Below, piece by piece: positions 3,311 to 43,642 of a stretch of DNA of 57,345 nucleotides; the first letter of the stretch is position 1, and every line of letters begins with the position of its first letter. This stretch comes from an uncultured archaeon (GTDB lineage Archaea; Iainarchaeota; Iainarchaeia; Iainarchaeales; JAAZKV01). The position numbers were made by a program, and so were the translations under genes. Under the pieces are notes generated by a model. The model did no database searches. It saw only the letters and a program-made list of their open reading frames with translations, and had not been told where the DNA came from. The stretch covers positions 1 through 57,345 of the forward strand of contig CABMEU010000017.1 in the NCBI GenBank assembly GCA_902385225.1, in the 5' to 3' direction.

Positions 3311-3329
3311 TGCTGCCTTGGCGGGCAGG

Positions 3330-4091
3330 TTATCTCTTTTTGCATACGAAAAATGCGGGCGGGTACTTTAATGGGGTCTTGTTGTGGGGCTGAAGAGTTG
3401 AATTAACCTCAACCAGCTCAAAACCCGATTTAATTATTTCTTTGATTACTTCTCCCACCGCGGGCACATGAATGTACTGGCTCTTTTTGTAAGTAATCTC
3501 TCTATCCCCGCTCTCCTTGAAATAAAATCTATCCCCAAAATCAATTTCCTTAATTTTCACTCCAATTGGTTTGAGAATGAATTGTTTAACTCCCTGCTTT
3601 ATCCAAAAAGGGATGTATTCCCCTGAGTAGGTTCTCTTGTGGGTGGTGAAAACAAAAATCCCTCCCTTTTTTAGAACCCGCAGAATTTCTTTTAGCGCTT
3701 TTTGCCTATCATCCCTTCCAGGGATATGTGTCCAGCCCTGGTTTGAGAAAAGAACATAATCAAAAGTATTGTCCTTAAACTTTAGTTCGGTGGCGTCCCC
3801 CACACGGTAATTCAATTTCATTCCTTTTGACCTCGCGAGTTCTCTTGCGGTTTGAATCATTTCAGGGACAATATCAACGCCAATAACATCAAAACCCATC
3901 TTCTGCAATGGGATTGTGGTTCTCCCTGTCCCGCAGCCAAGGTCAAGCAAAACCCCTTTCTTTTTGAAATACTTATTAATTATGAGCTTTTCTGCGTCCC
4001 ACAGCCCCCCTTCGGCGAGCATGGTGTATCTCTTTTGAGCCCCCTCGCTTCCAAAAGAATCAATCATTAATTTTTTCAAATCCTCAACCAT
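3330..4091 (-). CDS. Class I SAM-dependent methyltransferase
   Basis: Motif I VLLDLGCGTGR, post-I DVIGVDI, and FDYVLFS / LKKGGIFVF motifs. Confidence 0.85.
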   Translation of the reverse strand: MVEDLKKLMIDSFGSEGAQKRYTMLAEGGLWDAEKLIINKYFKKKGVLLDLGCGTGRTTIPLQKMGFDVIGVDIVPEMIQTARELARSKGMKLNYRVGDATELKFKDNTFDYVLFSNQGWTHIPGRDDRQKALKEILRVLKKGGIFVFTTHKRTYSGEYIPFWIKQGVKQFILKPIGVKIKEIDFGDRFYFKESGDREITYKKSQYIHVPAVGEVIKEIIKSGFELVEVNSTLQPHNKTPLKYPPAFFVCKKR

Positions 4092-13930: not shown

Positions 13931-14536
13931 TTAGCGTCTTATTCGTCCCTTGGCTTTAACTTTAATTGTCTTTGGTTTAAAATCAAAAGCGAGCTGGTTT
14001 GAGCCGCGCCTGTCTAGGTGAGGTTTCATTCTTAACTCAAGTTCTTCAGGTAGAAGCCCTCTTTTTAGCCTTACTTTTCTCTCCCTAGCAAGAGCTCTCA
14101 AAAAATGTTCTCTTTCAGTTACCTCACTCTTATTGAACAATTGTTTTTCAAGAACCGCGACATCGTGTTCAGTAACTCTCTCACTTAGGGTTGGAATTTG
14201 TATCTTTGCCCTTCTTGCAAGTGACCTCAAAAACTCCAGACGTTCTTTTGGCGGAAACATAATATTTCCCCCGATAAGTCCCCTTCCATTTGAAAGGAAA
14301 AGCAATTTGTAGGTTCTAACCCTTGAGCGCGCCATGAAATGGTTAATTACTTCCCGTATGAAAATATTCTCCCTCTCAGCGGTAGTTGGCTCCCTCTGCC
14401 ACTTCCTGTGCGCTGAAGTAATCCCAAGCTCGCCTGCGATTCTCAATAAATTCTTGCGGTTAAACTCTTCAGGGGTTGAAGGAAATTTAGGTTTCTTTCC
14501 CGCTTGAGAAACCGGCTGAGTAGAAGCTGTTTGCAT
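13931..14536 (-). CDS. Hypothetical basic protein
   Basis: 201-aa ORF, Arg/Lys/Glu-rich, convergent with the radical SAM gene. No family recognised. Confidence 0.55.
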   Translation of the reverse strand: MQTASTQPVSQAGKKPKFPSTPEEFNRKNLLRIAGELGITSAHRKWQREPTTAERENIFIREVINHFMARSRVRTYKLLFLSNGRGLIGGNIMFPPKERLEFLRSLARRAKIQIPTLSERVTEHDVAVLEKQLFNKSEVTEREHFLRALARERKVRLKRGLLPEELELRMKPHLDRRGSNQLAFDFKPKTIKVKAKGRIRR

Positions 14537-14622
14537 AAGTAATTCCTTATTGCGAAGTATAAAAGCCTTTTTGGGGGCGGTACTTCTAAAGGTTTATTAA
14601 CTATTAATCACTTTTTTGTGAT

Positions 14623-16239
14623 ATGAAAAAAGAGCGGGAGTGGGCGAAAAAAGCCAGAGAGATTATTCGGTCACACTGGCCATTTTTAGTCATATTTCTC
14701 ATAGCGATTTTCTTTTACCTGCACAACATCGGTGCGCTGAGTTTTTGGTCTGACGAAATATGGGTTGCAAAATCAGTTTCACTTACTCCCACTATTGAGA
14801 GCATGATTTATTTCACAGAAACCCCGCAATCCACTCCGCCGCTATTTTTACTTGCCTTAAAGGGAATAATTTTTGTGCTTGGCACCTCAGAGTGGGCGTT
14901 TAGAATTCTCTCGGCGATTTGCATAATTTTATCAGTGGCGCTTGTTTATTTACTCGCGCTGAAAATATCAAAGAAATGGTTCAGCGGAGGGGATAAGAAA
15001 TTTGCTTTAATCTCGGCTGCTTTTTTTGCGTTTAATCCCCTTACACAAAGATATGCGCAGGAACTAAAACAATACGCCGGCGATATGCTAAGCTTTCTTC
15101 TTCTGCTAAATCTTGCGGAGTGGTACTTTGAGAGCAGAAGCAAAAAATCATTCTGGGCGCTGGTTCTTGCCTGCATTATACTCCCCTGGTTCTCGCAGGC
15201 ATCAATATTCCTGGTTGCGGTGATATGCACAAGGTTTGTTTATGAATTCTTGTGGAAAGAAAAGGGGCTTGCGCGAATAATATCCAGACGGCTGACAAAA
15301 GAAAACCTTCGGGAAATAAAAAACACGATAATAATTATCCTTACGGCGGGGGTATCTTTTGCCGCGGAGTATTACCTTATACTTGCAAAGGTCACGGGAA
15401 ACTCAATCCTTCTTAATTACTGGGAAACAATGCATACCCAGCTCTTTCCTTTATGGAAAGTGAATTTGTTCTCCCTCTCCGGATTCTCTGATTTTATTAA
15501 CTTTGTAGTCAGCCACACATATTCAATTTTCTCATTCCTGTTCAGAAACTTTTACCGCCTCGACCTAATGATTATCCTAATTCTCTTCCTTTGCTTCATA
15601 TTTATTGCGTTTAACAAAAACAGGGCATTTTTATTCACAGTGCTCGGCATTTTTGCATTTAACCTTCTTGCGGCGCTTGCCGGCAAATTTCCTTACGGCG
15701 GAACAAGAGTAGTATTGTTTTTCCTGCCAATACTCTCAATCGCGGTTGTTTATGCGCTATGCCAATTAATCATAACCCACAAGTCGCTCTTTAGGCACTA
15801 CCTGAAAATAACTCTGGTTATTCTGGCGGTCCTCCTATTGTTTGGAACATATATTCATTTTTTTACAGTGTATTCGCTCGCGGAGAACGCAAAACCGCTG
15901 TTAGAGAAGTATGTTGCTGAAAAAAAGCAGGGCGAATTCACAATGATTTATGAGGGAAGCAGAATTAATTTTGGGTATTACTGCCCGGCGTGCGCGGATA
16001 ATAAAACCATTTATATTAATGCCCCAAACGGGATGGGGGAGCAATACCTGGAAAAAACCCAAACACAGATTGGAAAAATGGATAGCGGAGCGAGAATCTG
16101 GCTGTTCTTCTCTACTTTCTCATCAGTGGGTTTTACAACAAATGAAATGAATCAGGTCGTCGAATATTTTGATATGAGCTGCGTGAAGCTAAAAGAGTAT
16201 GATGATGTCGGTGCCTGGCTTTACCTTTACAAGTGCTAA
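14623..16239 (+). CDS. GT-C fold membrane glycosyltransferase (ArnT/PMT, GT39/GT83-like)
   Basis: 538 aa with more than 10 TM helices. First-loop acidic motif FWSDE after TM1 and a soluble C-terminal domain. TATA-like GGTTTATTAA 30 nt upstream. Confidence 0.7.
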   Translation: MKKEREWAKKAREIIRSHWPFLVIFLIAIFFYLHNIGALSFWSDEIWVAKSVSLTPTIESMIYFTETPQSTPPLFLLALKGIIFVLGTSEWAFRILSAICIILSVALVYLLALKISKKWFSGGDKKFALISAAFFAFNPLTQRYAQELKQYAGDMLSFLLLLNLAEWYFESRSKKSFWALVLACIILPWFSQASIFLVAVICTRFVYEFLWKEKGLARIISRRLTKENLREIKNTIIIILTAGVSFAAEYYLILAKVTGNSILLNYWETMHTQLFPLWKVNLFSLSGFSDFINFVVSHTYSIFSFLFRNFYRLDLMIILILFLCFIFIAFNKNRAFLFTVLGIFAFNLLAALAGKFPYGGTRVVLFFLPILSIAVVYALCQLIITHKSLFRHYLKITLVILAVLLLFGTYIHFFTVYSLAENAKPLLEKYVAEKKQGEFTMIYEGSRINFGYYCPACADNKTIYINAPNGMGEQYLEKTQTQIGKMDSGARIWLFFSTFSSVGFTTNEMNQVVEYFDMSCVKLKEYDDVGAWLYLYKC

Positions 16240-17880: not shown

Positions 17881-17984
17881 AGAACTTGGGGAATTCCCTT
17901 TTTTTTGATTTTATTCTTTAGGAATTAATGCCCCACCTTTTCATTTAAATACTTCTTGGTCTTTGATATTAACCTGCGGTTAAA

Positions 17985-24457: not shown

Positions 24458-24943
24458 ATGGAACTCCTTGACCTTGTTGATGGAAATGACAATGTTATTG
24501 GGCAGGAAGAGAAGGACGTTGTTAAGGCAAAGAACTTGCGGCGCAGGATTTCCCATATATTTGTAATGAACAAGAAAGGGCAAATGCTTCTTCAGCTCCG
24601 CGGAAAGGATTGTTCATATTTGCCGGGGTATTGGTGTGTATCCGCGGGAGGACACGTTTCCGCCGGCGAGAGTTATGAGGAAGCGGCGAAGAAGGAACTT
24701 TGGGAAGAGCTTGGGGTGGAAGCGCCTCTAAAGCTCTTGGGAAAGAATCTTTTTGTTACGCCAAAGTTTGAAATATTCATTAGCGCTTTTACTGCCCAGT
24801 ATGCGGGACCATTCAAACTTGAGGAAGGGAAGGTTGCGGAAGTGAAATGGTTCACGCTAGGGGAAATTAAAGAACTAATTAAGAATAATGGGAAAATACA
24901 CCCGGAGCTATTATTCCTTTTGAAGAAGTACTTCTTGAAGTAA
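24458..24943 (+). CDS. NUDIX hydrolase
   Basis: Complete Nudix box GHVSAGESYEEAAKKELWEELGV. Confidence 0.88.
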   Translation: MELLDLVDGNDNVIGQEEKDVVKAKNLRRRISHIFVMNKKGQMLLQLRGKDCSYLPGYWCVSAGGHVSAGESYEEAAKKELWEELGVEAPLKLLGKNLFVTPKFEIFISAFTAQYAGPFKLEEGKVAEVKWFTLGEIKELIKNNGKIHPELLFLLKKYFLK

Positions 24944-30017: not shown

Positions 30018-30029
30018 ATTGTTTAGTTA

Positions 30030-30069
30030 ATGGCCGGGGAGAGACTTTTCGGCCATTTTTCTATTTTTT
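30030..30069. terminator. Bidirectional terminator-like hairpin between convergent genes
   Basis: Stem ATGGCCG (30030-30036) / CGGCCAT (30050-30056), then TTTTTCTATTTTTTT. Confidence 0.55.
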
Positions 30070-30720
30070 TTAATACTTAAGCAGCATATATAATTTCCCG
30101 TCTTCGGCGTATTTTGGCGTGAATTTCTTAAAACCCATATCTTTGTATAATCTAATAGCCCCCTTATTTGACTTATCTGTGTAAGTATAGAGAAATTTTA
30201 CTCCATCCCTCTTAGCCATTCTTTTTGCGGCAGCCACGGTCTCCGCGACGAGCTGTCTTGAGAGCCCCTCCCTCCTAAACCAAAGATTTGTCGCAAGGTC
30301 AGAGAACAGAATTGCTTTTTGTCCCTCGAATGTTCTTTCATGAAAAGAAGCCGAAGCGATTTCATTGCCAAGAGCGGTAATAATATGAACGCTCCCGCCG
30401 GGAACAATTTGCCCCTCCTTGGTTCTTACAGTCCCAATAACCGCTTTTTGAACTAAACCCTTCCTGAAAAAAACAGCGTTTCCTATCCTGCTCCCGTATT
30501 TGAGCCTCCGCCTGTACTGGATTTCTCCATTATGCTCTGCCTCGCGCTCCTTTAATCCGACAGCGATAAGCTCGGTTTGTGTGAGCCTCTTTAGCGGTTT
30601 TAGCGCACTAGAAAGTCTTTGCTTCCCTCTTGAAACAATTGCAATTACTCTTTTCATAATATAACTAAATGCCCCCTTGCTTCTTATACTTTTTTGTGGC
30701 AATAATTCAAAAAATTCCAA
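30070..30720 (-). CDS. GNAT-domain protein with ~90-aa N-terminal extension
   Basis: The C-terminal half, FRREGLSRQLVAETVAAAKRMAKRDGVKFLYTYTDKSNKGAIRLYKDMGFKKF, carries GNAT motifs A/B. Confidence 0.6.
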   Translation of the reverse strand: MEFFELLPQKSIRSKGAFSYIMKRVIAIVSRGKQRLSSALKPLKRLTQTELIAVGLKEREAEHNGEIQYRRRLKYGSRIGNAVFFRKGLVQKAVIGTVRTKEGQIVPGGSVHIITALGNEIASASFHERTFEGQKAILFSDLATNLWFRREGLSRQLVAETVAAAKRMAKRDGVKFLYTYTDKSNKGAIRLYKDMGFKKFTPKYAEDGKLYMLLKY

Positions 30721-30787
30721 GCCGGCATAACCAGCGGGAAAAAGAGTTTGAGGAATAAATAAATACTCAAAAGCCCTCTACTTTGCT

Positions 30788-31630
30788 ATGAAACAGCTGT
30801 TTGAAACAAACCTAATTCTTGGAGTAATATGTATTTTTGCGGTTTGCCTGCTGGCTGCCACGCTTGGCTGTGTCGGCTCTAGTGGACCGGTCGACTTTGT
30901 GAAAGAAGCAAACATAAGTCTGGATAAAGAAATTGATTCCAGTGTGAGCATATCCCTCGCCTCAACAATTCCTCCTGAGAACTCAAGCAAAACAGTCTTT
31001 GAGACAGGAGAAGCAATTTATCCTATGGAAGAAGGACTGAAGATTGGGGATAAGTTTGCTTTTAGGGTAGCGGACGAGAATGGCGCTGTAATAATCCCGC
31101 TGGATGAGTATCCTTACTCCACAATTAAGCAAGAAGGAGGCGCGGGGTCAGGAACAATAAATACAGACAAAGTAAATCTTTTGTATGAAGGAAATTACAC
31201 GCTTCAACTAGTAAAAATTGATTCCAATAACACAAAAGCAACCATAGTCTCTGAAAAAAACTTTAGCGTAACACGAAGATACTCAAAAGAAATCCTGGCA
31301 AATTTAAGGTTCTGGCTCACTAAAGAAGAAAGACCGGATGCGGAAGAATTTTTGGAACTTGATTTAACCGGAATCGACCAAATCAACTTTGCTGTCTGGG
31401 GCGAAGCTCCAAAAGACGGGAGAGAGATTAATGGGCGGGCAATTATGGTGAGAGAGGATTATGACGGGAATGTGCTTACAGAAAGCGGACCGTGGGACTA
31501 CCCATTCACACTCCTTCCAGGCGTAGCACAAAAACTAAACGGGATGAGCGGACACCCCTACCCCGGCACTTATCATGTGAAAATCATTATTGATAATGAA
31601 CTAATCAAGGAATATCGGGTTAAAGTCTGA
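30788..31630 (+). CDS. Secreted lipoprotein, unknown function
   Basis: Signal peptide with lipobox LLAATLGC; 280 aa. Confidence 0.6.
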   Translation: MKQLFETNLILGVICIFAVCLLAATLGCVGSSGPVDFVKEANISLDKEIDSSVSISLASTIPPENSSKTVFETGEAIYPMEEGLKIGDKFAFRVADENGAVIIPLDEYPYSTIKQEGGAGSGTINTDKVNLLYEGNYTLQLVKIDSNNTKATIVSEKNFSVTRRYSKEILANLRFWLTKEERPDAEEFLELDLTGIDQINFAVWGEAPKDGREINGRAIMVREDYDGNVLTESGPWDYPFTLLPGVAQKLNGMSGHPYPGTYHVKIIIDNELIKEYRVKV

Positions 31631-31678
31631 TTCTTTTTTGGAGAAGGTTTAAATTACACTTCGGGCGTTAATACTTTT

Positions 31679-32458
31679 ATGATTCGAAGGTCGCTTAATA
31701 TTGTAGGTTTAGGCGAGGGATTAAGAGGTAAGAAAGCAGTGGATCTTGCGCTAAAGCATCCAAAGCATATTTTTGTCGGGGTGGATTCTCATCCGCTTTC
31801 TGAGTATGGGCGCTACTTAAAATCCCGCGGGGTAAAAGAAAAACCGCGCAATTTAACCATAAAGAATAGTACTGGCGCCTTTGAGTATCTTGCTTCGCAA
31901 AAAGAAGCGAGCGTTGATCATGCGTATGCCCACTTTTTGTTTCAGCATGTGTCTTACGCTGAACGCCAGAAAATTTATTCACAATTAATGCGAACAATGC
32001 GCCCCGGAACCAGATTTGTTACTATTGAAGAAGCGAATTATATAACACAATTGCCGCTTGAATTGAGAAACACGGGTTTTATTGTGAGCGTTAAACGCAT
32101 TGGGGCTGAGGAACTGTTAAAACTTGATACTGATAATGGGGAGATGAATGCAAAGCACCATCTTACTGTTCAAAAAAATCGGCGTGCATTACAATCACTT
32201 TTTCAAAACGCTGCCCCCTCAACACTTGCGCAATTGAAATTAATGGGGATGGCTACGAGTTTAGAGGGCACGATGAAATTTGATATGGAAACTTTTAGAA
32301 GAACAATCGGGGAGAAGTGGGCGATGATTGAAGGCAGAACTCCTTCAAAGGATGCGCGAAGAGCGGTTGAAAGAATACTTCGCGATGTGAATCATGTTTA
32401 CACAGATACTCCATGGGTTGTAATCACAGCAAGAAAACCAATGCTAAAAAAGGAGTGA
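31679..32458 (+). CDS. Orphan, divergent methyltransferase-fold (TrmB-like layout) protein; array gene 1
   Basis: IVGLGEGLRGKKAVDLALKHPKHIFVGVD ... GVKEKPRNLTIKN ... MRPGTRFVTIE. TATA GGTTTAAATTA 31 nt upstream. Confidence 0.5.
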   Translation: MIRRSLNIVGLGEGLRGKKAVDLALKHPKHIFVGVDSHPLSEYGRYLKSRGVKEKPRNLTIKNSTGAFEYLASQKEASVDHAYAHFLFQHVSYAERQKIYSQLMRTMRPGTRFVTIEEANYITQLPLELRNTGFIVSVKRIGAEELLKLDTDNGEMNAKHHLTVQKNRRALQSLFQNAAPSTLAQLKLMGMATSLEGTMKFDMETFRRTIGEKWAMIEGRTPSKDARRAVERILRDVNHVYTDTPWVVITARKPMLKKE

Positions 32459-32460
32459 GC

Positions 32461-32478
32461 ACTCACTTTTTTATAGTT
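32461..32478 (+). promoter_or_regulatory. Boundary element ACTCACTTTTTTATAGTT (post-stop head fused to the TATA of the next gene)
   Basis: Starts 3 nt after the stop at 32456-32458. Identical 18-mer at 34028-34045. ATG 32498 follows. Confidence 0.6.
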
Positions 32479-32497
32479 CAAGCAATTTGATTTGTTT

Positions 32498-33055
32498 ATG
32501 GTAAGAAGAAATCTTGTTCGAGCTGATTATCACCAAGTTGAACTTGGTGCCGGGGCAGAGGGGTGGTCAATGGCAAATAAGGCTAGAAAGGACCCAAGCA
32601 GAAAATATTTGGCAACTGATTTTAAATTGGTTAATAGGAAAAGATACGTTGCAGAAAATGCTAAGTGGGGCGTAAAGCCATTTCCAAGGAATCTTCACTT
32701 TCTAAAAGGAGGAGCATTAACTGTTATACATAAACTAAAGTTGCAAGGGAAGAAAACTGAGAAAATTATTGTTGCCATGGGCACAGGGCACTTGCTAAAC
32801 CCGTTCTATTTGGGAAGAATAGCAAAACATTCAAAAGAAGTCCTTGCTGCTAATGGGGTGATTTACTTTGTTTCCACTTGGAAACCCAAATATTTTGAGG
32901 AAAAAGTAGTGCCGCTGTTTGAGAAAGAAGGGTTTAGATTCAAACAATTAAAACGAAATGTTAAGCGCCAGATGGAACACAGTTCAAAAGCAGCAGATTT
33001 TCACATTGAGTATGGGCAAGTACAATGGGAATATGAGTTTAGACTGCGTAAATGA
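32498..33055 (+). CDS. Orphan, paralog-like of array gene 1 (degenerate methyltransferase fold); array gene 2
   Basis: VELGAGAEGWSMANKARKDPSRKYLATD ... GVKPFPRNLHFLKG parallels gene 1. ATG 32498 preferred over the track's TTG 32492. Confidence 0.5.
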   Translation: MVRRNLVRADYHQVELGAGAEGWSMANKARKDPSRKYLATDFKLVNRKRYVAENAKWGVKPFPRNLHFLKGGALTVIHKLKLQGKKTEKIIVAMGTGHLLNPFYLGRIAKHSKEVLAANGVIYFVSTWKPKYFEEKVVPLFEKEGFRFKQLKRNVKRQMEHSSKAADFHIEYGQVQWEYEFRLRK

Positions 33056-33077
33056 CTCACTTTGTTGGACACTTTTT
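33055..33077 (+). repeat. Post-stop boundary motif ACTCACTTTGTTGGACACTTTTT (copy 1)
   Basis: Overlaps the last base of the TGA stop. Two CACTTT half-sites at 12-nt spacing, ending in T5. Confidence 0.7.
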
Positions 33078-33121
33078 CTAAGTATTAGGTTTTTTATTTA
33101 AAAGAGTGTATACTTCTTTAG

Positions 33122-34012
33122 ATGCCTGTACCTATTCAACTGAAAAAATTCTATTTGGAGCATTTGCCTCCAAGGGATAGAATTGCCCTTGGGAATGCAA
33201 TAACTCGGCTTGGCGTGGAACGCACCTTGGACGCAGCGCAGGCACATAAGGCGCTTGAGTTTCATGAAAAAACTGGGGTGCCGTTAAAGTTAGCAATAGA
33301 AGCCCAATTGGTCCCGGCAAATAATGCGCTGCGTAATCCTGTTGCAATGCACACTGCAAAAAATCTGCATTCTTCCTTTAGGATGACAACAAAAGGGGGG
33401 AAAGTCAATGTCTCAACAAGCTTTGCAACAAGGACATCTGCCGCTGCAAGAGCACGCTCAAGAATTGACGGATTGCACCAATTTACTGCAATTTCTTTTC
33501 GTGTTATTCCTTCAAGTTCAGAATTTAAAAAATTCAATTCGCCTAATTTGGCGTGGATAAAAGAAGCTGACCCGCGCAGAAGAGTTGATTTATCTAATCT
33601 GGATTTTGTTAAAGACCCCGGACCGCAATCATTTATGCTCATAGTTGAGGTTGGGTTTGCAAAAATAGGGCGAAAACCAGTACTGCTTCTCACTAATGCC
33701 CAATTCAGTAAAGTATACTACACATTATCTCCTTCCCAGAAGAAAATATTTAAAGGGGCTTATTCGCAATTACTTGAAAAAGCGCAATCCGCCAGCGGAA
33801 ATTTACCCTTGCTTATCCCAAGCAACAAAACCGTAAAAGAAATGCTTCAAAAGGTATTTGATCACTCGCCAAGCGACAAGGTGCTTGATGAATTCTATGA
33901 TGGTTTCTCAGAGAAAAGGGGCAGGAAAAGAACTTCGCTTAAAATAAGAAACCCTGTTAATGGAAAAAAACTTGAGGGAGAATTCTGGGTGAACAGACCG
34001 CAGCAGAAATAA
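33122..34012 (+). CDS. Orphan protein; array gene 3
   Basis: 296 aa, MPVPIQLKK N-terminus. TATA TTTATTTAAAAG 29 nt upstream. Confidence 0.55.
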   Translation: MPVPIQLKKFYLEHLPPRDRIALGNAITRLGVERTLDAAQAHKALEFHEKTGVPLKLAIEAQLVPANNALRNPVAMHTAKNLHSSFRMTTKGGKVNVSTSFATRTSAAARARSRIDGLHQFTAISFRVIPSSSEFKKFNSPNLAWIKEADPRRRVDLSNLDFVKDPGPQSFMLIVEVGFAKIGRKPVLLLTNAQFSKVYYTLSPSQKKIFKGAYSQLLEKAQSASGNLPLLIPSNKTVKEMLQKVFDHSPSDKVLDEFYDGFSEKRGRKRTSLKIRNPVNGKKLEGEFWVNRPQQK

Positions 34013-34027
34013 GTGTCTTTTCTTTAC

Positions 34028-34045
34028 ACTCACTTTTTTATAGTT
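34028..34045 (+). promoter_or_regulatory. Boundary element ACTCACTTTTTTATAGTT (second copy)
   Basis: Identical to 32461-32478. ATG 34065 follows at the same spacing. Confidence 0.6.
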
Positions 34046-34064
34046 TGGATGAGTTTGTTTTCTT

Positions 34065-34718
34065 ATGGTCAAAAATATCCCGGGATTTTTAATTGTTCCA
34101 AAAAAGACAAATTCCCCAAGAAAACTCTTGTTTAGTGTTTGGATTACTACTGGGTCCACCTCAAATCCTTTCTTTGTTACGGGCGGTCCAGCAAGGAATG
34201 CTATTGACGGGTTTTCCAGATGGAATCAGGGTGTGAGTGTTCGCATTGGGGAGATATCCTATTTACGCAATGATTCGGAACTAAAGCAGCGTTTATTTGG
34301 GCATGACCCAAAATCCCTTCAAAGAGTTAATGCTGAGGAAAAGGAACGCCGTGCTAAACACCATTTTGGGGAGAAACCCATTTACACTTATGAGTTCTTC
34401 CCGTTTGGCAAAGTCCAAGAGGTTTTTGGCGGAAAAGGAATTGCGGCGCGCATTGAGCGAGTCACGCTTCAGGAACTACTACGCGTCGCCCCAAAAGCAA
34501 TTCTTTATCCTTCTTTATTCATGACAGAATTAAGGGAAAAGCAGCTCAAGAGCAGGGGCGTGAAAATTGAGTACGGCACGCAGCCCCTCTACGCACAAAA
34601 TATCTTACAGGCAATTAACAGACAAATACGCAGACAAAAAGTAAAGCACCGCCCAAAGGAACCAGCTGAGAGGCTCGTATACGCAAGACTTGCGGGAAAA
34701 AAATTAAGGAATTGGTAA
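34065..34718 (+). CDS. Orphan protein, possibly GNAT-like; array gene 4
   Basis: 217 aa. FGGKGIAARIERVTLQELL is reminiscent of GNAT motif A. Weak. Confidence 0.5.
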   Translation: MVKNIPGFLIVPKKTNSPRKLLFSVWITTGSTSNPFFVTGGPARNAIDGFSRWNQGVSVRIGEISYLRNDSELKQRLFGHDPKSLQRVNAEEKERRAKHHFGEKPIYTYEFFPFGKVQEVFGGKGIAARIERVTLQELLRVAPKAILYPSLFMTELREKQLKSRGVKIEYGTQPLYAQNILQAINRQIRRQKVKHRPKEPAERLVYARLAGKKLRNW

Positions 34719-34724
34719 AGAGAG

Positions 34725-34747
34725 ACTCACTTTGTTGGACACTTTTT
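34725..34747 (+). repeat. Post-stop boundary motif ACTCACTTTGTTGGACACTTTTT (copy 2, identical to copy 1)
   Basis: Starts 7 nt after the stop at 34716-34718. Confidence 0.7.
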
Positions 34748-34801
34748 GGATTTACCCGCTTTTTAGGAAAAGATTTAAACCGAATCTAACTTATTTTTGT
34801 T

Positions 34802-35305
34802 ATGCAAATCCGCAGCGCAACTATAAATGATTTTGATGCGATTTTCTCTATTGTTAATGAGTGTAAAGCGGATATGAAATCCCGCGGGCTTGAACAGTGG
34901 CCCTCCCATCACCCCTCAAAGGAAACCATTTTGAAAGGGATAAACTCCGGGAATCATTTTGTTATACTTGAGAATAATCAAATCGTTGGAGGGGTTTTAC
35001 TTAATCACTCCCCTGATGAGCAATACAAACTCGTGAAGTGGGAAATTACTGATACAAATCCTTTGATTGTTCATCGTTTAGCGATTTCCCCAAAGCACCA
35101 GGGGAAAGGAATCGCGCAGGAATTAATGAAATACGCGGAGGAACTCGCAAAAAAAGATGGTTCCAAAAGTATTCGCCTTGATACTTACAGCACAAACAAA
35201 GCCTCAAACAAATTCTACCAAAAACTCGGCTACAAACACGCCGGAACAATAAAGATGCTCCAATACATGCCTGGGGAATATAATTGCTATGAAAAGAAGG
35301 TTTAA
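34802..35305 (+). CDS. GNAT family N-acetyltransferase; array gene 5
   Basis: LAISPKHQGKGIAQELMKYAEELAKKDG...NKASNKFYQKLGYKH. Confidence 0.9.
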   Translation: MQIRSATINDFDAIFSIVNECKADMKSRGLEQWPSHHPSKETILKGINSGNHFVILENNQIVGGVLLNHSPDEQYKLVKWEITDTNPLIVHRLAISPKHQGKGIAQELMKYAEELAKKDGSKSIRLDTYSTNKASNKFYQKLGYKHAGTIKMLQYMPGEYNCYEKKV

Positions 35306-35311
35306 GTAAAA
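35301..35311 (+). promoter_or_regulatory. TATA box TTTAAGTAAAA containing the GNAT stop codon
   Basis: The TAA stop (35303-35305) lies inside the box. 29 nt upstream of ATG 35330. Confidence 0.6.
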
Positions 35312-35329
35312 CCTTGGCGTGTTTTATTT

Positions 35330-36910
35330 ATGGTTCCTAAAACTCGGCGCGCAATTAGATTAACTCCCCCTGTTGTTGCAGCTCAAATGGATGCTGCGCA
35401 GAAGGCTTTTGCTTCAGGGAACGCAGGGGAAGCGGTAACTCTTGTAAAAGGACTTGTACAAAAACCCCAAATAAAGAATCTTCATAATCCGCGTGTTTTT
35501 GGGAGAATGAATTGGAAAGTGCTTGATGCGAACCCTGAGTTAAAGCAAAGGGCGCTTAATTATGCAAGAGCGCACCTAGAGGACCTTGGAAAAGAGCAAG
35601 TTCATATTGGGGATATCTCGCATGATGCAACACCCGAAACAAGAGGGGCGTTTGCAATTGTAGCCGCGTTTGGCGGAAGAGAAGACCAAGAATTATGCAA
35701 TAGACTACTAAAAAAAACTGGTTTTTCCGCAGGGGGCACCCTTGCAGAGCACACCTCAAATCATATTGAGGGAAGAGAAAGAAGGCAGATAAGAATAAGA
35801 ATTTACAAAGCAAGACCAGGGTATGTTCCGTTCATGCACGGGCAATTACTTGAAACTATACGCCGAGGCAAATCAATGGCGGAAATAAATGAAGCTTTTG
35901 CTGACTTAAAAAAAACTGAGTGGTGGAAGAAAAAAACAATGCAAGTACTAAGAAAATCCGAGCACATCGCTGCGGAAGCGGCTATTGCAAAAGAAAAAGG
36001 AGAGAGTTATTTTTACAAAGCAGGAAGAGCAAAAGCGTTTAGGCATAACGAGGCGGCTAATACACGATTACCTTGGCCAAGACGAGTTCATGCCGCGGAA
36101 GCAATACTCTGGCAGGCAATAGCGACCTCAACAAAATTCAATTTTCAGGAACGCCTCCAAGCACTAATATTGGATCCGGACAAGGTTGTTCAACGATTAG
36201 CAAGAGAAAGCCTTGACCCGCAGGTAAAAGCATCAAAGGAGCGCCAGAATGAAGAAGACTACTTCAAAACTTCATTGAAATGGATACGGACGGGGGAATC
36301 AAATCCGGATGCGATTTATAGGCACATCGCAGAGCTGCCCCCTCCAAAACAAAGAAACTTCTTCATCAAGCTGAAGGAAAGGATGGGGACAAGATTCTTG
36401 CAAAAACCATTCATGATGCCCGTGGATGTTGCGCTTGATGTGATTCCCTTGCTGGAAATGGATGTTGATTCTTACCAGCACAGGGACCTTGAGAGATTAA
36501 TAGGGACATCAGTATTATTTGAAAGAAAAGAGGGGTATGCATCCCCTGGATTCTTTAGGGGACTCCTGCCGAGAGAGTTTGGGGGAGATTTTAAAAAAAC
36601 CGGGTTAGTGAGTTTTGATAGAAGAAAAGCATTGGGTGCGCTTAGGTATGAACTATCAAAAACACTTCCTAATGAACGCCTTAGGCGAAGATACCTTGGA
36701 AATGTAATCCAATCAGTTAAGGCAACAACAAGAGTTCCAATCGAGTTCAAAGAGTCACTTGATGCGATGATTGAGCGCACACCCCTTGATGTTTTTGAGA
36801 GAAGAGCCCCGCTTCCAGTTCGGCAAAACCCAGAACAAGGAAAACAATATCCAACCCAAAGACCTCCAGAAGAACCGCCAGCCAAAGAGATTTATGATAT
36901 CCCCTTTTGA
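35330..36910 (+). CDS. Orphan 526-aa protein with HEAT-like segments; array gene 6
   Basis: MVPKTRRAIRL N-terminus. LDPDKVVQRLARESL is HEAT-like. Pro-rich C-terminus. Confidence 0.6.
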   Translation: MVPKTRRAIRLTPPVVAAQMDAAQKAFASGNAGEAVTLVKGLVQKPQIKNLHNPRVFGRMNWKVLDANPELKQRALNYARAHLEDLGKEQVHIGDISHDATPETRGAFAIVAAFGGREDQELCNRLLKKTGFSAGGTLAEHTSNHIEGRERRQIRIRIYKARPGYVPFMHGQLLETIRRGKSMAEINEAFADLKKTEWWKKKTMQVLRKSEHIAAEAAIAKEKGESYFYKAGRAKAFRHNEAANTRLPWPRRVHAAEAILWQAIATSTKFNFQERLQALILDPDKVVQRLARESLDPQVKASKERQNEEDYFKTSLKWIRTGESNPDAIYRHIAELPPPKQRNFFIKLKERMGTRFLQKPFMMPVDVALDVIPLLEMDVDSYQHRDLERLIGTSVLFERKEGYASPGFFRGLLPREFGGDFKKTGLVSFDRRKALGALRYELSKTLPNERLRRRYLGNVIQSVKATTRVPIEFKESLDAMIERTPLDVFERRAPLPVRQNPEQGKQYPTQRPPEEPPAKEIYDIPF

Positions 36911-36919
36911 ATTAAAACG

Positions 36920-36939
36920 CACTTTCTTGGATACTTTTT
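36920..36939 (+). repeat. Post-stop boundary motif CACTTTCTTGGATACTTTTT (copy 3)
   Basis: Starts 10 nt after the stop at 36908-36910. Confidence 0.65.
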
Positions 36940-36955
36940 GGGTTTGGTGGGAAGG

Positions 36956-36966
36956 TTTAAGTAAAA
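36956..36966 (+). promoter_or_regulatory. TATA box TTTAAGTAAAA with conserved downstream GGTTTGGCGT
   Basis: 30 nt upstream of ATG 36986. Confidence 0.6.
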
Positions 36967-36985
36967 GGTTTGGCGTATTTTTCTT

Positions 36986-37918
36986 ATGGCCGGTTTGAGG
37001 GGAAAAAGGAAAAAGCTTCACTTTGATTTTGATTCGCATTTGGACGGGCAGAAATATATTACTCATAGGGAGCGCCCGCTTAGGGGAAGCAAAACAATTG
37101 TTTTTGAGTTTTCTAGCGGGTTGCCTACAAGAAACCAAAGGGTGTTAAAACGCGTTTTAAAAGAAACGGATGAAGGTACATCTAATTTTCTAAAATCCAT
37201 GGCGCGGTTCACTAAAAACACCGGGAAAAAGAGAATGGTTCCGGGGGAATTTACAAAGACTGGACATTTGAACGTATTACATGAAACTGAACAAATGATT
37301 AGGTCTTTGTTTCTCATCACGCCCACCTTTGGCTTGTTTAAGAATCTTATTGACGTCGCGGTAGAAATTGAAACCAAAAGGCATGCGCTCATTAAAAATA
37401 CCCTAATAAAATCACTAAAAAGGGGCAGAGTTGAGACGAGATACGGCAGCACTCATAGTATTCTTTCAGCGGAACTACGCAGGGAAGGAATTGATTCAAG
37501 CAGAACAATGAAATCAATAGTTAGCACTCACTATGAAAGATTGCTTAGAAGAATTCTCTCAGAAAAACTTGGCGCAAAACCTCCAACCATACTTGATTAC
37601 AAAAGAGCAGCGGTTGATGTCTTGTTTTCAAAAATACTTAATGGTGTTCTAAAAAAGGCGTTTAATAAAAGCACAAAAACTGCTAATTCTTCTGATTATA
37701 GGTTTTTGACGTTATTTGCATCAGTTTCAATAGGGAATCTTAAAGAAGAACAGCTTAATGAAATCATTCAAAGGAATGATCCGTCATTGATACTCAAATA
37801 CAATGGAATTCCGACAATGGGTGAAATTAGGTCGTCAAAAGAAATGAGGGACTTAATGGCAAAAGTACTGGCAAAGTCCTCGTTTTTTAGAAGACAACCC
37901 ACACAAATGAAGAAGTAA
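36986..37918 (+). CDS. Orphan 310-aa basic protein; array gene 7
   Basis: MAGLRGKRKKLHFD N-terminus. No family recognised. Confidence 0.55.
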   Translation: MAGLRGKRKKLHFDFDSHLDGQKYITHRERPLRGSKTIVFEFSSGLPTRNQRVLKRVLKETDEGTSNFLKSMARFTKNTGKKRMVPGEFTKTGHLNVLHETEQMIRSLFLITPTFGLFKNLIDVAVEIETKRHALIKNTLIKSLKRGRVETRYGSTHSILSAELRREGIDSSRTMKSIVSTHYERLLRRILSEKLGAKPPTILDYKRAAVDVLFSKILNGVLKKAFNKSTKTANSSDYRFLTLFASVSIGNLKEEQLNEIIQRNDPSLILKYNGIPTMGEIRSSKEMRDLMAKVLAKSSFFRRQPTQMKK

Positions 37919-37922
37919 TCCC

Positions 37923-37942
37923 CACTTTCTTGGACACTTTTT
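37923..37942 (+). repeat. Post-stop boundary motif CACTTTCTTGGACACTTTTT (copy 4)
   Basis: Starts 5 nt after the stop at 37916-37918. The track's TTG start 37930 lies inside this motif and is probably not the real start. Confidence 0.65.
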
Positions 37943-37986
37943 CCCCTGCATCAGAAGTAAAAAATGATTTGTTCTCACTTTTCCTT

Positions 37987-38802
37987 ATGAAAGATTACTC
38001 AATTAATTCTCCCACCGCTTATTCGGTTGCGCGTTCGCGTGCGCTAAGCGATATTCCTCTTTCTAAGGAAATTGCTGATTGGGCGATGGAGCATGTTGTT
38101 GTTAGGAAGGATAATCTGGAGGCATTTCTTCCAAGAAGGGTGCTTAATGTTGAGGCGAGGTATAAACTAATTGATAAGGTAATTTCTAATCAAAATCCGA
38201 CCCAAATACTAGAACTTGCCTCAGGATTACTCCCAAGAGGATATTTAATGGCAACAAAGGGAGTGACTTTCGTTGAAACTGATTTACCCGAAATGATGGA
38301 AGTAAAGAAGAGGATGCTTAATGAGCTCTTACTAAAATCGCCTCCTACTTTGTTTCTTGAGAAAGCAAATGCCCTTAACCTAAAAGAATTAGAGGGCGCT
38401 TGTAAGCACTTCTCTAGTAAAGAGTCGCTCATAATAACTAATGAGGGGTTGCTGCGCTACCTGAATTTTGAGGAAAAAACAATTGTTGCTCAAAATGTTC
38501 ACACACTTTTAGAGAAATTTGGTGGAGTATGGATAACAAGCGACATAACACTCGCAAAGAGATTCACACCTGAAAGATTAAATAAAATCAAAAACAATAT
38601 TGGAATGGATATCACTCCAAACTTATTCAGGGACTTGAAGCACGCAAAAAAATTCTTTTCGGATTTGGGGTTCACACTCAAACTCCACCCATTCAAAGAA
38701 ATTTACTCCGAACTAGTTTCCCACAAGGGAAAAGAAATACCAAAAAAAGAACTCAAATACGCCCTGGCGTGGTACGTGGCGGAGATGAGGGTGAAGAAGT
38801 GA
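37987..38802 (+). CDS. Class I SAM methyltransferase, leucine-carboxyl/TcmP-like; array gene 8
   Basis: ILELASGLLPRGY (compare the v.LGAGLDTR motif), VTFVETDLPEM, ITNEGLLRYL. Confidence 0.6.
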   Translation: MKDYSINSPTAYSVARSRALSDIPLSKEIADWAMEHVVVRKDNLEAFLPRRVLNVEARYKLIDKVISNQNPTQILELASGLLPRGYLMATKGVTFVETDLPEMMEVKKRMLNELLLKSPPTLFLEKANALNLKELEGACKHFSSKESLIITNEGLLRYLNFEEKTIVAQNVHTLLEKFGGVWITSDITLAKRFTPERLNKIKNNIGMDITPNLFRDLKHAKKFFSDLGFTLKLHPFKEIYSELVSHKGKEIPKKELKYALAWYVAEMRVKK

Positions 38803-38823
38803 CTCATTATGTTGGGCAGTCTT
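38802..38823 (+). repeat. Degenerate post-stop boundary motif ACTCATTATGTTGGGCAGTCTT (copy 5)
   Basis: Overlaps the last base of the TGA stop. Shares the ACTCA head and the GTTGG core. Confidence 0.4.
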
Positions 38824-38842
38824 AACCTTTGTTAAAGACTTT

Positions 38843-39556
38843 TTAGCTGAGTGTGATGAAATCCTTTGTTACTGCCTCAACTTTGTCAATTGCCTCTTTG
38901 CAAACTTTTATCACATCAACATTAGTCCCTTGAAAATTTATTGTCACTATTTTGTTTATTGTTAATTTGTGTGTGGGAGGGGTGAATGCAGGAAGTTGAG
39001 TTGCTGGATTTATTGGCACCCCATTAATGCTTACTCCATTACCAAATCTAACCCCTGTGCGGCTCCAAGTTACTCCACCACCTGGGCCGTTAAATGAAAT
39101 TCTCTCATCAACTACTTTAATATCTTGTAAAGTCAATTTTCTGTGTTTCTCCCGATTTTCTTTTTGTATTTCACTTAACACACTATTTTTTGTATCAATG
39201 AATGGTTGGTGGGTAAGAAGTATATCATATACCTTTTGGTTGGCTGTGATTAACTTTTTGATCTCAGGCTTGTTTGTTTTCTCATCAAAACTTGGTTTGT
39301 CTTTGGCAATTGGGAAATAAAGGCTTGTGCTTTCAGGAAAACCCTTTGCTTCGGAATAAAGATTTATGCATTTGTCTAAGCAAACCCCTGCTTTTATTAG
39401 TGTTTCTTCGGTGAGTTCTGAAGCCCGTGTGCTAATGTTGCCTTTGTTAATGTCTTGTTCAAGTTGTGCTGTGAGCTCTTTGAAAAGTTCCTTGGCTCGA
39501 GAAATTTGGCTTTCAGCAGTTTTCTTTAGAAGTTCATTCATTTTCTCACTTTTCAA
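38843..39556 (-). CDS. Hypothetical protein
   Basis: 237 aa, coiled-coil N-terminus and Gly/Asn-rich C-terminal half (NGPGGGVTWSRTGVRFGNGVSINGVPIN). Confidence 0.55.
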   Translation of the reverse strand: MKSEKMNELLKKTAESQISRAKELFKELTAQLEQDINKGNISTRASELTEETLIKAGVCLDKCINLYSEAKGFPESTSLYFPIAKDKPSFDEKTNKPEIKKLITANQKVYDILLTHQPFIDTKNSVLSEIQKENREKHRKLTLQDIKVVDERISFNGPGGGVTWSRTGVRFGNGVSINGVPINPATQLPAFTPPTHKLTINKIVTINFQGTNVDVIKVCKEAIDKVEAVTKDFITLS

Positions 39557-39718
39557 TTTTTTTTAATTAAAAGTAAACATATTGTTTTAGTTTTTAATGA
39601 TGTCGGGAGTGTTTTGCCGCTGAAAAGCGAAGATCTAGTTTTGAAGAATATACTTGTTGTGAATGGGTTTAGGCGGTTAATTGAAAGGAATAAAAGGAGA
39701 TTTTGTTTGTATTTTTAC

Positions 39719-42720: not shown

Positions 42721-42990
42721 ATGCCTGTGCCACGTTATAAGAAAGAGCAAAGAAATGCCTTAAGAGTAAAGAGAGAGCTAAATCCATTCTTTGCGGACCT
42801 ATTTCCTACAGATAAAGAAAGAATACAATTTGTCCGGACTGCGGCAAAATCAGCCCCATTTGATCCACTTAGAGTTAGCCCAAATAATGCTGGGGCCAAA
42901 TCATTGGCGGATAGAAACAAGTTAAAATTCATTCAAAGAGAACGTGTTGCGGGGCTGCTCGCGGCCAGAACAAGGGGCAAATTACCTTAA
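42721..42990 (+). CDS. Hypothetical basic protein (orphan)
   Basis: MPVPRYKKEQRNALRVKRE... TATA-like TTTTATTG 28 nt upstream. Confidence 0.5.
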   Translation: MPVPRYKKEQRNALRVKRELNPFFADLFPTDKERIQFVRTAAKSAPFDPLRVSPNNAGAKSLADRNKLKFIQRERVAGLLAARTRGKLP

Positions 42991-43124
42991 AATCCATTTT
43001 TTCTTTTCTCGCCAAGGTTAGAAATGTCCTATATTTTGTGTAAAAATAAGTTGTTTGAAAGAATTGACTCTTGGTTATGTAGCCAAAAGAGGGGATTCTC
43101 TCTGTGGAATAATCTTTTTCCTTA

Positions 43125-43142
43125 AGACAATAATTATTGTCT
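43125..43142. terminator. Perfect 18-nt palindrome AGACAATAATTATTGTCT between convergent genes
   Basis: Read directly. Could act as a bidirectional terminator hairpin, but the T tracts are weak. Confidence 0.35.
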
Positions 43143-43192
43143 GCGGCGTTTATTTGCCTTTCTTGATTTAGTTGTTCTTTTAAGGAAACAAA

Positions 43193-43642
43193 TTATCTCC
43201 TCTTCACAAGCCCTCTCTTCCTGAGTATTCGGATTGTTTTTCTTCTCATGCTCCAAAATCTGCCGATTAGTGTTCCGGCAATTACACAGAAACCAAATGC
43301 CCCTGCTGCTGGACCGCTAACCCAAGCGCTGAATATTTGGGTTCGAAAAATCGCAAAAATCATGTAAATAACCAGAACAATTATTCCAATCCAATCCATT
43401 CGTGAAACAACTTTGTTGCTCTCCTCATGCCATGTTATGTTGAACATCCTTCCTGCAAAGAAGCCCACGAGTATTCCAATTAGTATTCCTGCGAGCGCGA
43501 GCGGAGCATTAATCGCCCCCATAAAAATATCATATGTAATTAACACAAGCAGAGCGAGAATTATAATGGCGAAGAGCGCCATGCGCATCCTTAATTTTCT
43601 GTCAACAAACCGCTTAACTATTTTGTGTCTTTTTGAAGGCAT
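43193..43642 (-). CDS. Hypothetical 4-TM membrane protein
   Basis: 149 aa, basic termini, four hydrophobic helices. Confidence 0.6.
   Translation of the reverse strand: MPSKRHKIVKRFVDRKLRMRMALFAIIILALLVLITYDIFMGAINAPLALAGILIGILVGFFAGRMFNITWHEESNKVVSRMDWIGIIVLVIYMIFAIFRTQIFSAWVSGPAAGAFGFCVIAGTLIGRFWSMRRKTIRILRKRGLVKRR

Follow-up and report, generated by a model that had tools for sequence, protein, structure and literature searches.

A stop codon-anchored motif punctuates genes of a hypervariable accessory region in a group of DPANN archaea

Integrons and clusters of attC sites lacking integrases (CALINs) consist mostly of single-gene units, with occasional reverse open reading frames (ORFs), each trailed by a conserved, co-oriented site that is homogeneous within a lineage; their cargo of toxin-antitoxin (TA) pairs, acetyltransferases, methyltransferases, and orphans turns over rapidly, unit by unit, between close strains (PMC9668308). 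Among archaeal integron cassettes, 10.5% carry TA systems, 8.3% carry DNA methylation/restriction proteins, and 4.4% carry acetyltransferases (PMC9668308). All of these traits recur in the region described here, an array of eight genes (g1 to g8, positions 31679 to 38802) on contig CABMEU010000017.1 of an uncultured archaeon of the Iainarchaeota, in which a motif of 20 to 23 nt follows most of the genes. The window that we analyzed is this entire contig of 57,345 nt, whose promoters are archaeal and which encodes an XPD helicase with an HBB domain. The region resembles integron cassette arrays in layout, cargo, and dynamics without being one. The TTGGAC of the motif matches the TTRRRY of integron sites, but an attC site is a foldable, imperfect palindrome of 57 to 141 nt (R''-L''...L'-R'), whereas the motif is short, asymmetric, and unstructured, and only a third of its copies have G as the first core base. 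Integrons have IntI beside the array (it is absent in CALINs), whereas no IntI was found here in the window or the related loci. Furthermore, integron cassettes mostly lack promoters and depend on a common one, while here every gene has its own TATA box and recombination joints also fall outside the site.

Other described systems share single features with the array. Archaeal terminators assisted by aCPSF1/FttA, as mapped by Term-seq in Methanococcus maripaludis, resemble the motif in being unstructured, in lying on the sense strand past the stop codon, and in carrying two U tracts within approximately 20 nt; in Methanococcus, efficient binding of aCPSF1 requires at minimum two U4 tracts in at least 18 nt, and terminators of this type are the most efficient (PMC8716108). 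However, the sequence between the tracts is not conserved in these known terminators, which serve genes throughout the genome, whereas the motif has a GGA-A core and occurs in a variable region only. Additive flexible genomic islands of Alteromonas (PMC4898812) and replacement islands (PMC4033161) also combine a constant neighborhood, here the DUF333/Dus and GrpB/XPD genes, with strain-specific cassettes, a few of which are shared out of phylogenetic order. The usual landmarks of such hotspots are tRNA genes, integrases, or integrons, whereas here we found neither a tRNA gene nor an integrase but punctuation by a short motif. The intergenic repeats of halovirus HF2 are likewise near-identical modules with transcription signals between unrelated genes of an archaeal replicon (PMC8707807). 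They differ from the motif in being viral, 29 to 58 bp long, and shown to be promoters, while the motif is chromosomal, is tied to stop codons, and did not turn up in viral contigs. A nonpalindromic word followed by a T run, placed so as to shield the next promoter, is also found in terminators of other polymerases that act with other factors. These sequence-specific, hairpin-free signals are the class II terminator of T7 RNA polymerase (ATCTGTT and a T run) and the T-rich element of Pol I with its Reb1/TTF-I roadblock site. We know of no comparable sequence-specific terminator described for archaeal RNA polymerase. The genomes of DPANN archaea are tiny and a genetic system is lacking, and to our knowledge almost nothing is known of their transcription signals or of how their accessory genes move. 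Our search of the literature on terminator motifs in DPANN archaea and on Iainarchaeia found no description of such a motif.

A conserved motif at gene ends

The motif is best explained as a clade-specific signal that punctuates gene ends in a hypervariable accessory-gene region of this group of DPANN archaea. In the window, CACTTTSTTGGAYACTTTTT occurs exactly at 33058, 34728, 36920, and 37923, always on the plus strand, against 0.04 matches expected from dinucleotide shuffling, and no fifth window match appeared even when three mismatches were allowed. An earlier note, made from the sequence alone, had reported these four copies with the first two as identical 23-mers, which exact matching confirms. 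Copy 1 (33055 to 33077; 33.1 bits in the matrix described below) and copy 2 (34725 to 34747; 37.8 bits) both read ACTCACTTTGTTGGACACTTTTT; the former overlaps the TGA of g2 and starts 64 nt before the ATG of g3, and the latter follows the g4 stop codon by 9 nt and precedes the ATG of g5 (the GNAT gene) by 74 nt. Copy 3, ACGCACTTTCTTGGATACTTTTT (36917 to 36939; 33.0 bits), is also kept behind g6 in the closest relative. Copy 4, CCCCACTTTCTTGGACACTTTTT (37920 to 37942; 31.2 bits), is kept from TTGGACACTTTTT onward in four genomes, each with a different gene upstream. The ACTCAC head ascribed to copies 3 and 4 is instead CGCAC and CCCAC, respectively. The degenerate copy that the note placed at 38802, ACTCATTATGTTGGGCAGTCTTA (38802 to 38824, plus strand), lies in a spacer between convergent genes. 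It does sit on the stop codon of g8, and this position is its sole support, but its score of 13.7 bits is at chance level and can be reached by shuffled sequence. Orthologs of g8 in two related loci (L040 and L078) have better copies on or just past their stop codons.

Relatives of the array were fetched by scanning metagenome contigs for the exact motif (loci L009+L023, L016, L021, L012, and L013), and further loci were reached through orthologs of g8 (L036, L038, L040, L043, L077, and L078). L009 and L023 are contiguous, stem from a 236-kb contig, and are identical to L033, hereafter called the closest relative, which shares 80 to 90% DNA identity with the window; L021 is part of the longer contig L074. 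Since most loci were obtained through g8 or the motif itself, the sample is biased to this island. Genome-wide motif frequency was approximated from the 57-kb contig, the 236-kb contig of the closest relative, and approximately 190 kb of related loci.

To describe the family, we used a matrix of 25 columns with the core TTTNTTGGACAYNTTTT, trained on 24 copies and applied with a cut-off of 19 bits. It retrieved 35 copies in 194,950 nt from 12 contig lineages, compared to approximately 0.1 in shuffled sequence. G10, G11, A12, and A14 are present in all 35 copies and C13 in 34 of them, T4 to T6, T8, T9, and T17 to T20 are nearly invariant, and positions 3, 7, 15, and 16 vary. Position 7 is C in 21 copies, G in 12, and A in 2, while positions 15 and 16 are genome specific, being CT in the clade of the window and TA, GA, or TG elsewhere. 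The consensus, of approximately 23 nt, is ACT CAY TTT N TTGGACA YN TTTT; the motif of the window is one local variant within the broader family ACTCAYTTTNTTGGACAYNTTTT, whose GGA-A core is invariant. More distant relatives carry forms such as CATTTTCTTGGACATATTTT, CTATTTCTTGGACAGGTTTT, and TTGTTTGTTGGACATGTTTT, and CATTTTCTTGGACATATTTT is the ancestral form. The two CACTTT half-sites 12 nt apart in which the earlier note saw the essence of the motif do not extend to distant relatives, where the second half reads CATATT or CAGATT and the constant part is GGA-A within TTGGACA. This core is unchanged across genomes whose g8 proteins are only 53 to 55% identical, and PemK toxins with 29 to 45% mutual identity are each trailed by the motif at a distance of 2 to 3 nt. 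Such constancy despite protein divergence points to selection on the core.

The information content of the motif spans approximately 22 bp without symmetry. No inverted partner of the core with at most one mismatch was found at a consistent place within 170 nt of the 29 copies checked, and the four long copies fold no more stably than their shuffles (z scores of +1.48, +0.84, +1.63, and -0.66). An attC-like structure was rejected on these two grounds. The window form carries tracts of U3+U2 and U5, and the form CATTTTCTTGGACATATTTT carries two U4 tracts within 20 nt. A small mobile repeat of the REP/BIME (repetitive extragenic palindrome/bacterial interspersed mosaic element) or MITE (miniature inverted-repeat transposable element) type was discarded, as there is neither an inverted repeat nor a duplicated flank and the copies are confined to one region. 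A read-through or recoding signal was also rejected, since neither the distance from the stop codon (0 to 10 nt) nor the frame is constant.

The motif is anchored to stop codons. Starts of 24 of the 35 copies fall between -4 and +10 nt from the stop-codon end of a sense ORF of at least 45 codons, with a mode of 2 nt, whereas 3.6% of random positions are equally close; among copies absent from the training set of the matrix, 9 of 10 are stop-proximal. In the window, the gap from stop codon to element is 2 nt for g1, 15 nt for g3, 6 to 9 nt for g4, 9 nt for g6, and 4 nt for g7, and the element of g2 overlaps its TGA. The GNAT gene (34802 to 35305), already singled out in the earlier note as lacking an element, is indeed the exception, and the TATA box of the next gene contains its TAA. 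In the clade of the window, 62 to 66 nt separate the motif start from the next ATG in 10 of 14 codirectional cases; in other genomes this distance ranges from 29 to approximately 180 nt, while the distance from the stop codon is 2 to 6 nt. When loci are oriented by g8, 25 copies are on the plus strand and 3 on the minus strand. Copies also occur in spacers between convergent genes, at L023 9249 (minus strand, 29.5 bits), L040 16911 (minus strand, 28.9 bits), L074 9709 (25.6 bits), and L040 8328. The first of these spacers (copy at L023 9230 to 9249) corresponds to window positions 42990 to 43193, where we observed a decayed trace, TAGAAATGTCCTATATTTTGTG.

The motif is not the generic terminator of the lineage, because its copies occur only in the island while core genes of the window have plain T runs, or a hairpin and a T run, at their ends. 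The earlier note had named a generic terminator as the alternative that would undo its proposal; no copy was found in the rest of the 57-kb window (approximately 50 kb outside the cluster), and the 236-kb contig of the closest relative has exact copies at two places only, both inside the island. Outside this group, the exact motif gave five single chance matches, all bacterial, in 185,579 reference genomes, a collection that does not include the lineage. A viral origin was rejected, as viral contigs gave no exact match and a relaxed pattern gave 28 singletons and no arrays.

Promoter modules, gene turnover, and recombination joints

All eight genes are on the plus strand and each has a TATA-like box, in agreement with the earlier note. 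Because this box lies 24 to 31 nt before each ATG, the mRNAs are probably leaderless. Where the note had one element at every boundary, the boundaries are in fact made of a small set of stereotyped modules, namely, the long motif, an ACTCAC-starting promoter (P2), a promoter with the core AGGTTTAAGTAA (P1), and the promoter of g8 (P4). Besides the four long copies and the degenerate one, the window contains two ACTCACTTTTTTATAG forms. These are the two identical 18-mers already reported, ACTCACTTTTTTATAGTT, at 32461 to 32478 and 34028 to 34045 (plus strand); the first fuses the head of the motif to the TATA box of g2 as a P2-type promoter, and the second is the P2 promoter of g4. Such short forms keep the head and the T run and have lost the core. 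Together with the end of g1, the first of them forms a hairpin followed by a T run (fold z score of -1.59), the sole gene end in the array to do so. The sequence ACTCACTTT occurs six times in the window, four of them in the cluster, against 0.39 expected. Window positions 34027 to 34067, with the g4 promoter, match at 95% identity the promoter that belongs to another gene, r199, of the closest relative, and the ACTCACTTTTTTATAG promoter precedes other genes in L033, L016, and L038.

The P1 core lies before g6 (35298 to 35309, plus strand) and g7 (36953 to 36964, plus strand). This 12-mer is found in the window at 20390, 24943, 35298, and 36953, four times in the closest relative, and once in L038. 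At these four window positions, in the closest relative (L009+L023 661, 6707, 7469, and 10511), and at L038 477, unrelated genes are preceded by nearly the same promoter, (G)AAGGTTTAAGTAAAAG.... The stop codons of the NUDIX gene ending at 24943 and of the GNAT gene ending at 35305 are both the TAA within a P1 TATA box. The GNAT protein and the GNAT-NUDIX fusion of the relative share the ending ...EKV*, which is promoter encoded because the stop TAA is the TAA inside the TATA box. The P4-type promoter of g8, TGCATCAGAAGTAAAAAATG... (37947 to 37986, plus strand), forms a fixed composite with the motif that is kept in the window, L033, L016, and L036, with similar arrangements in L074 (twice) and L012, and a distance from motif to ATG of 62 to 66 nt. 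A third stereotyped promoter, CGGCATTTCACTCCCAAAGCGTTTTTA..., lies 40 to 55 nt past the motif in several islands (L038 6818 to 6890, 8902 to 8960, and 14047 to 14110; L040 14869 to 14945; L013 4640 to 4710, minus strand); at L009+L023 17340 to 17395 it precedes a Dam-like (D12) methyltransferase gene.

The genes between these modules turn over rapidly. The closest relative starts with g0, g4, a gene of 143 residues (r143), an ICMT-like gene of 226 residues (r226), and g1; continues with a GNAT-NUDIX fusion, g6 with its motif, and the 199-residue gene r199, which has the window's g4 promoter; and ends with three minus-strand genes interspersed with two plus-oriented motif copies, a 140-residue zinc-ribbon gene with motif, and g8. 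Synteny thereby upheld the claim that boundaries are conserved while cargo differs: g4 precedes g1 in L033, and g2, g3, and g7 are absent, with other genes in their slots. Strict synteny, the other outcome named in advance as fatal to the proposal, does not hold in this reshuffled relative. The two 2-gene modules that had been proposed are not units there, since the GNAT gene comes next after g1, and g4 is on its own. L016 shows yet another arrangement before g8, and L036, L038, L040, L043, L074, L077, and L078 share little apart from g8, GNAT, g1-like methyltransferases, and the 199-residue gene. Cargo of the related islands includes PemK, ParE, and PIN/RHH pairs, methyltransferases, NUDIX, Fic, and LAGLIDADG proteins, one IS200-type transposase, and many orphans. 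Flanking genes (g0, Dus, DUF333, and GrpB/XPD) are conserved in the window, L033, L036, and L074, and the contents between them differ. No tRNA gene and no Rfam match was found in the window or eight related loci. The search for tyrosine or serine recombinases on the contig that the earlier note had suggested was run on the window ORFs; neither these nor an integrase was found among them or in the gene tables of the related loci.

Informative joints are few. Upstream of g8, four different genes in four genomes (g7, the 140-residue gene, an antitoxin-like gene, and a PemK toxin gene) are joined to the same sequence, and similarity starts at TTGGACACTTTTT. The site before g8 in L036 is a hybrid with the local head CATTTTA and a window-type tail, ACACTTTTT, whereas other L036 copies end in ACATATTTT. 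Behind g6, the similarity between window and relative spans the motif and ends approximately 10 nt later. Other joints lie elsewhere: the 3-gene block (g4 ortholog, r143, and r226) found between g0 and g1 in the relative is missing there in the window and is bounded by the AGGTTTAAGTAA promoter, as is the presence or absence of the NUDIX domain, and the flanks of g4 differ between window and relative from exactly its ATG and its stop codon. Recombination joints thus fall at all of the boundary modules (the motif, P1, P2, and P4), a pattern that fits general recombination between repeated modules better than a single dedicated site. Contigs of four metagenomes covering the window and the relative showed no alternative joints at the motif, although contigs hide rare forms; one apparent joint between opposite strands was an inverted motif copy 5.4 kb away.

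Possible functions of the motif

The reading that we favor, although we hold it tentatively and at somewhat less than even probability, is that the element is a terminator/insulator module with two U tracts and a factor-binding core that doubles as a recombination joint. Each gene would then be its own leaderless unit, running from a promoter with a TATA box at approximately -27 through ATG and stop codon to the motif, with the next promoter following. The two U tracts would make an efficient archaeal terminator of the aCPSF1/FttA-assisted kind, and the invariant core would bind a sequence-specific factor, either a roadblock/insulator or an RNA-binding protein, that shields the next promoter. 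Repeated as one and the same 20-mer from boundary to boundary, the motif would also offer a foothold for homologous recombination, by which genes between copies could be exchanged, lost, or inserted. Archaeal U-tract terminators have one or more tracts of at least U4 on the sense strand shortly past the stop codon and need no hairpin (PMC8716108); the T tracts of the motif likewise lie on the sense strand, 2 to 10 nt past the stop codon, in sequence with no predicted structure. Termination also explains the copies in convergent-gene spacers. Among the roles proposed in the earlier note (terminator, insulator, or recombination scar), a terminator/insulator combined with a recombination joint seems, as far as sequence comparison can tell, to fit best.

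Several observations weigh against termination as the function of the motif. A U-tract terminator needs no invariant GGACA core, and in the clade of the window all 20 positions are almost fixed, which is beyond what a terminator needs. Confinement to the variable region is odd for a basic transcription signal, and the window form has U3+U2 and U5 instead of two U4 tracts. In addition, a perfect copy at L033 16202 is flanked by divergent genes and has no sense gene before it, and antisense copies lie between two minus-strand genes at L033 15046 (a good copy) and L040 12129 (a weak one). A plain terminator leaves the invariant core, the confinement, and these three copies unexplained, and for this reason the element is read as a terminator/insulator with a factor-bound core.

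A recombination site of an integron-like cassette platform would account better than a terminator for the co-orientation and the odd contexts, and yet we judge it unlikely. The recombinase would be encoded elsewhere or act in trans and the crossover would fall just before TTGGAC, so that a cassette extends from TTGGACA... through promoter and ORF to the stop codon and ...ACTCAYTTTN. Sites stay co-oriented (25 plus and 3 minus) even where the intervening genes are on the opposite strand, as at the three exceptional copies above, and they start right past stop codons, like attC. The cargo of PemK, ParE, and PIN toxin pairs, GNAT proteins, methyltransferases, and orphans is typical, units are shuffled one by one between genomes that are 80 to 90% identical, and the motif has genome-specific variants, as in chromosomal integrons. 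Both informative joints switch between position 6 and TTGGAC, the L036 site is a hybrid, and TTGGAC in nearly all copies fits the TTRRRY of the integron core GTTRRRY. However, position 7 is G in only 12 of the 35 copies, there is neither a hairpin nor an inverted core partner within 170 nt, and no tyrosine or serine recombinase was found in the window or approximately 190 kb of related loci. Each cassette has its own promoter, and joints also lie outside the motif, at the ATG and stop codon of g4 (which is motif-less in the relative) and at P1 for NUDIX and the 3-gene block. The four metagenomes likewise offered no alternative joints, with the proviso on rare forms given above. In its widest form, which we likewise regard as unlikely, the arrays would be a new DPANN cassette platform, a functional counterpart of integrons built on a 23-nt unstructured site with crossover before TTGGAC, a leaderless promoter in each cassette, and a site that doubles as the terminator of the preceding cassette; exchange would depend on an unknown recombinase or on the homologous recombination of the cell, possibly aided by LAGLIDADG endonucleases.

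It is doubtful that the motif serves the gene that follows it, as an operator or activating site at approximately -45 to -64 through which a regulator switches on or silences an accessory regulon. The spacing of 62 to 66 nt to the next ATG in 10 of 14 codirectional cases in the clade of the window would suit such a role, as would the constant combination of motif and weak-TATA P4 promoter in six contigs and the retention of the 3' half of the motif with g8 while the upstream gene changes. A perfect copy also occupies the divergent promoter region at L033 16202, and an inverted copy lies at -42 to -61 of the minus-strand gene r125m, beside a P4-like promoter. In distant relatives, however, the next ATG may be anywhere from 29 to approximately 180 nt away whereas the stop codon stays at a distance of 2 to 6 nt, and good copies (at least 25 bits) lie in three convergent spacers with no promoter to serve. 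Moreover, an asymmetric site with nearly a single orientation is unusual for the dimeric regulators of archaea, and no regulator gene was seen nearby.

It is improbable that the motif is an essentially nonfunctional spacer repeat, kept alike by gene conversion and hitchhiking, in which only the T runs matter. Genome-specific variants (CT versus TA or GA at positions 15 and 16) do suggest homogenization within genomes, whole spacers with motif and promoter have been duplicated before unrelated genes in L074, and the short forms keep head and T run without the core. Neutral sequence, however, would not survive the divergence across which GGA-A is invariant, and copies in convergent spacers decay (as at 38802 in the window), so that loss does happen when constraint is lifted. 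Finally, it is very improbable that the motif is the asymmetric target, of approximately 22 bp, of a free-standing LAGLIDADG endonuclease of the island whose cuts drive gene swapping: a LAGLIDADG_1 gene of 217 to 238 residues (the monomeric size class) is the best conserved island resident other than g8 (in L036, L038, L013, and L077), a motif copy lies directly upstream of it in three of these four islands, and the motif's information spans a matching length without symmetry, but the gene is missing from the window contig and the fetched relative, whose copies are the most perfect, the motif is upstream of many other genes too, and a nuclease that cuts four to six sites in its own chromosome would be harmful.

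If the favored reading of a terminator/insulator with a factor-bound core is true, this stop-anchored, sequence-specific signal would be the first hint of archaeal termination or insulation that uses a defined word besides U tracts. Should recombination be its role, alone or in addition, the motif would represent a route to cassette-style gene exchange that can do without attC hairpins and without an integron integrase. In practice, the 23-nt matrix is a marker for the clade's flexible gene pool in metagenomes, with its TA pairs, modifying enzymes, and many orphans.

Genes of the array and additional observations

Of the modifying enzymes that the earlier note saw in the cargo, Pfam confirms two, the GNAT g5 and the LCM-type g8; g2 has no Pfam match, and g1 has weak methyltransferase matches only. 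The product of g1 (31679 to 32458, plus strand; 259 residues) is weakly class I methyltransferase-like, matching Pfam Methyltransf_25/11 with an E value of approximately 1e-3, below the cut-off for acceptance; it has an ortholog of 81% identity in L033 and homologs of 35 to 37% identity in the L074 and L040 islands. The GNAT acetyltransferase gene g5 (34802 to 35305, plus strand) matches Pfam Acetyltransf_1 with an E value of 2e-20 and ends with its TAA inside the g6 TATA box. In the closest relative (L033 10818 to 11816), GNAT is fused in frame to a NUDIX domain in a protein of 332 residues, while the window GNAT stands alone. A NUDIX gene in the window (24458 to 24943) lies 10 kb upstream behind a CGCACTTTTTTATAG promoter and encodes a protein 31% identical to the fused NUDIX domain. 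The last gene, g8 (37987 to 38802, plus strand), encodes an LCM-type S-adenosylmethionine-dependent methyltransferase (Pfam LCM, E value of 1e-6) with 665 homologs. It is the one island gene common to most relatives, with orthologs from 93% down to 53% identity in related islands.

The remaining five genes (g2, g3, g4, g6, and g7) encode orphans with no Pfam match. The 185-residue product of g2 (32498 to 33055, plus strand), absent from the closest relative, had no PADLOC, PHROG, or PDB match either, and no tblastn match in the related loci searched; its AlphaFold2 model has a predicted local distance difference test (pLDDT) score of 47, too low to be usable. The genes g3 (33122 to 34012, plus strand; 296 residues), also absent from the closest relative, and g7 (36986 to 37918, plus strand; 310 residues), replaced there by five other genes, gave no record in other assemblies by exact-protein look-up. 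The coding sequence of g4 (34065 to 34718, plus strand; 217 residues; AlphaFold2 pLDDT of 34, likewise too low) is 90% identical in the relative, where it has another position, a different promoter, and a different 3' flank. The basic 526-residue product of g6 (35330 to 36910, plus strand) has a 90% ortholog in L033, and the gene is paired with the GNAT gene in both genomes. A search of 5.8 billion proteins with g6 returned only g6 itself, and searching 1.84 billion representatives with a profile added one strong match (E value of 9e-32) and one marginal match (E value of 6.6e-4). Its sole clear relative besides the ortholog is a protein of 743 residues, matched in 10 short stretches. Across the array, PADLOC and PHROGs yielded nothing beyond GNAT, and PDB sequence searches with g1 to g4 were empty.

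Free-standing LAGLIDADG_1 genes lie at L036 11925 to 12587, L038 14131 to 14784, L013 3231 to 3887 (minus strand), and L077 3435 to 4106. Those of L036, L038, and L013 encode proteins 52 to 56% identical to one another, whereas that of L077 was recognized by Pfam only. In the same three islands, the gene is trailed by a conserved noncoding stretch of approximately 150 nt, ACGTCAAnTGACGT..., without an Rfam match, possibly a small RNA or a homing-site remnant. An IS200/IS605-type insertion sequence with a Y1 transposase of 143 residues is inserted in the L040 island (14160 to 14700), flanked by the GC-rich hairpins GCGCAGCG...CGCTGCGC and CCCCACAC...GTGTGGGG. A link between this family and the motif was rejected, since the element has hairpin ends of its own and the nearest motif copy lies 150 nt outside them.

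Some core genes of the window end in bacterial-looking GC hairpins with T5 to T8, shared by convergent pairs, at 17881 to 17915, 30018 to 30068, and 3311 to 3345; examples are GGGAATTCCC TTTTTTTT and GGCCGGGG...CGGCC ATTTTT. Fragments 95 to 100% identical to the window island (30500 to 39600) were present at low depth in landfill and pond metagenomes, and the closest relative (L033 6500 to 18500) was covered approximately 10-fold in two lake-water metagenomes.

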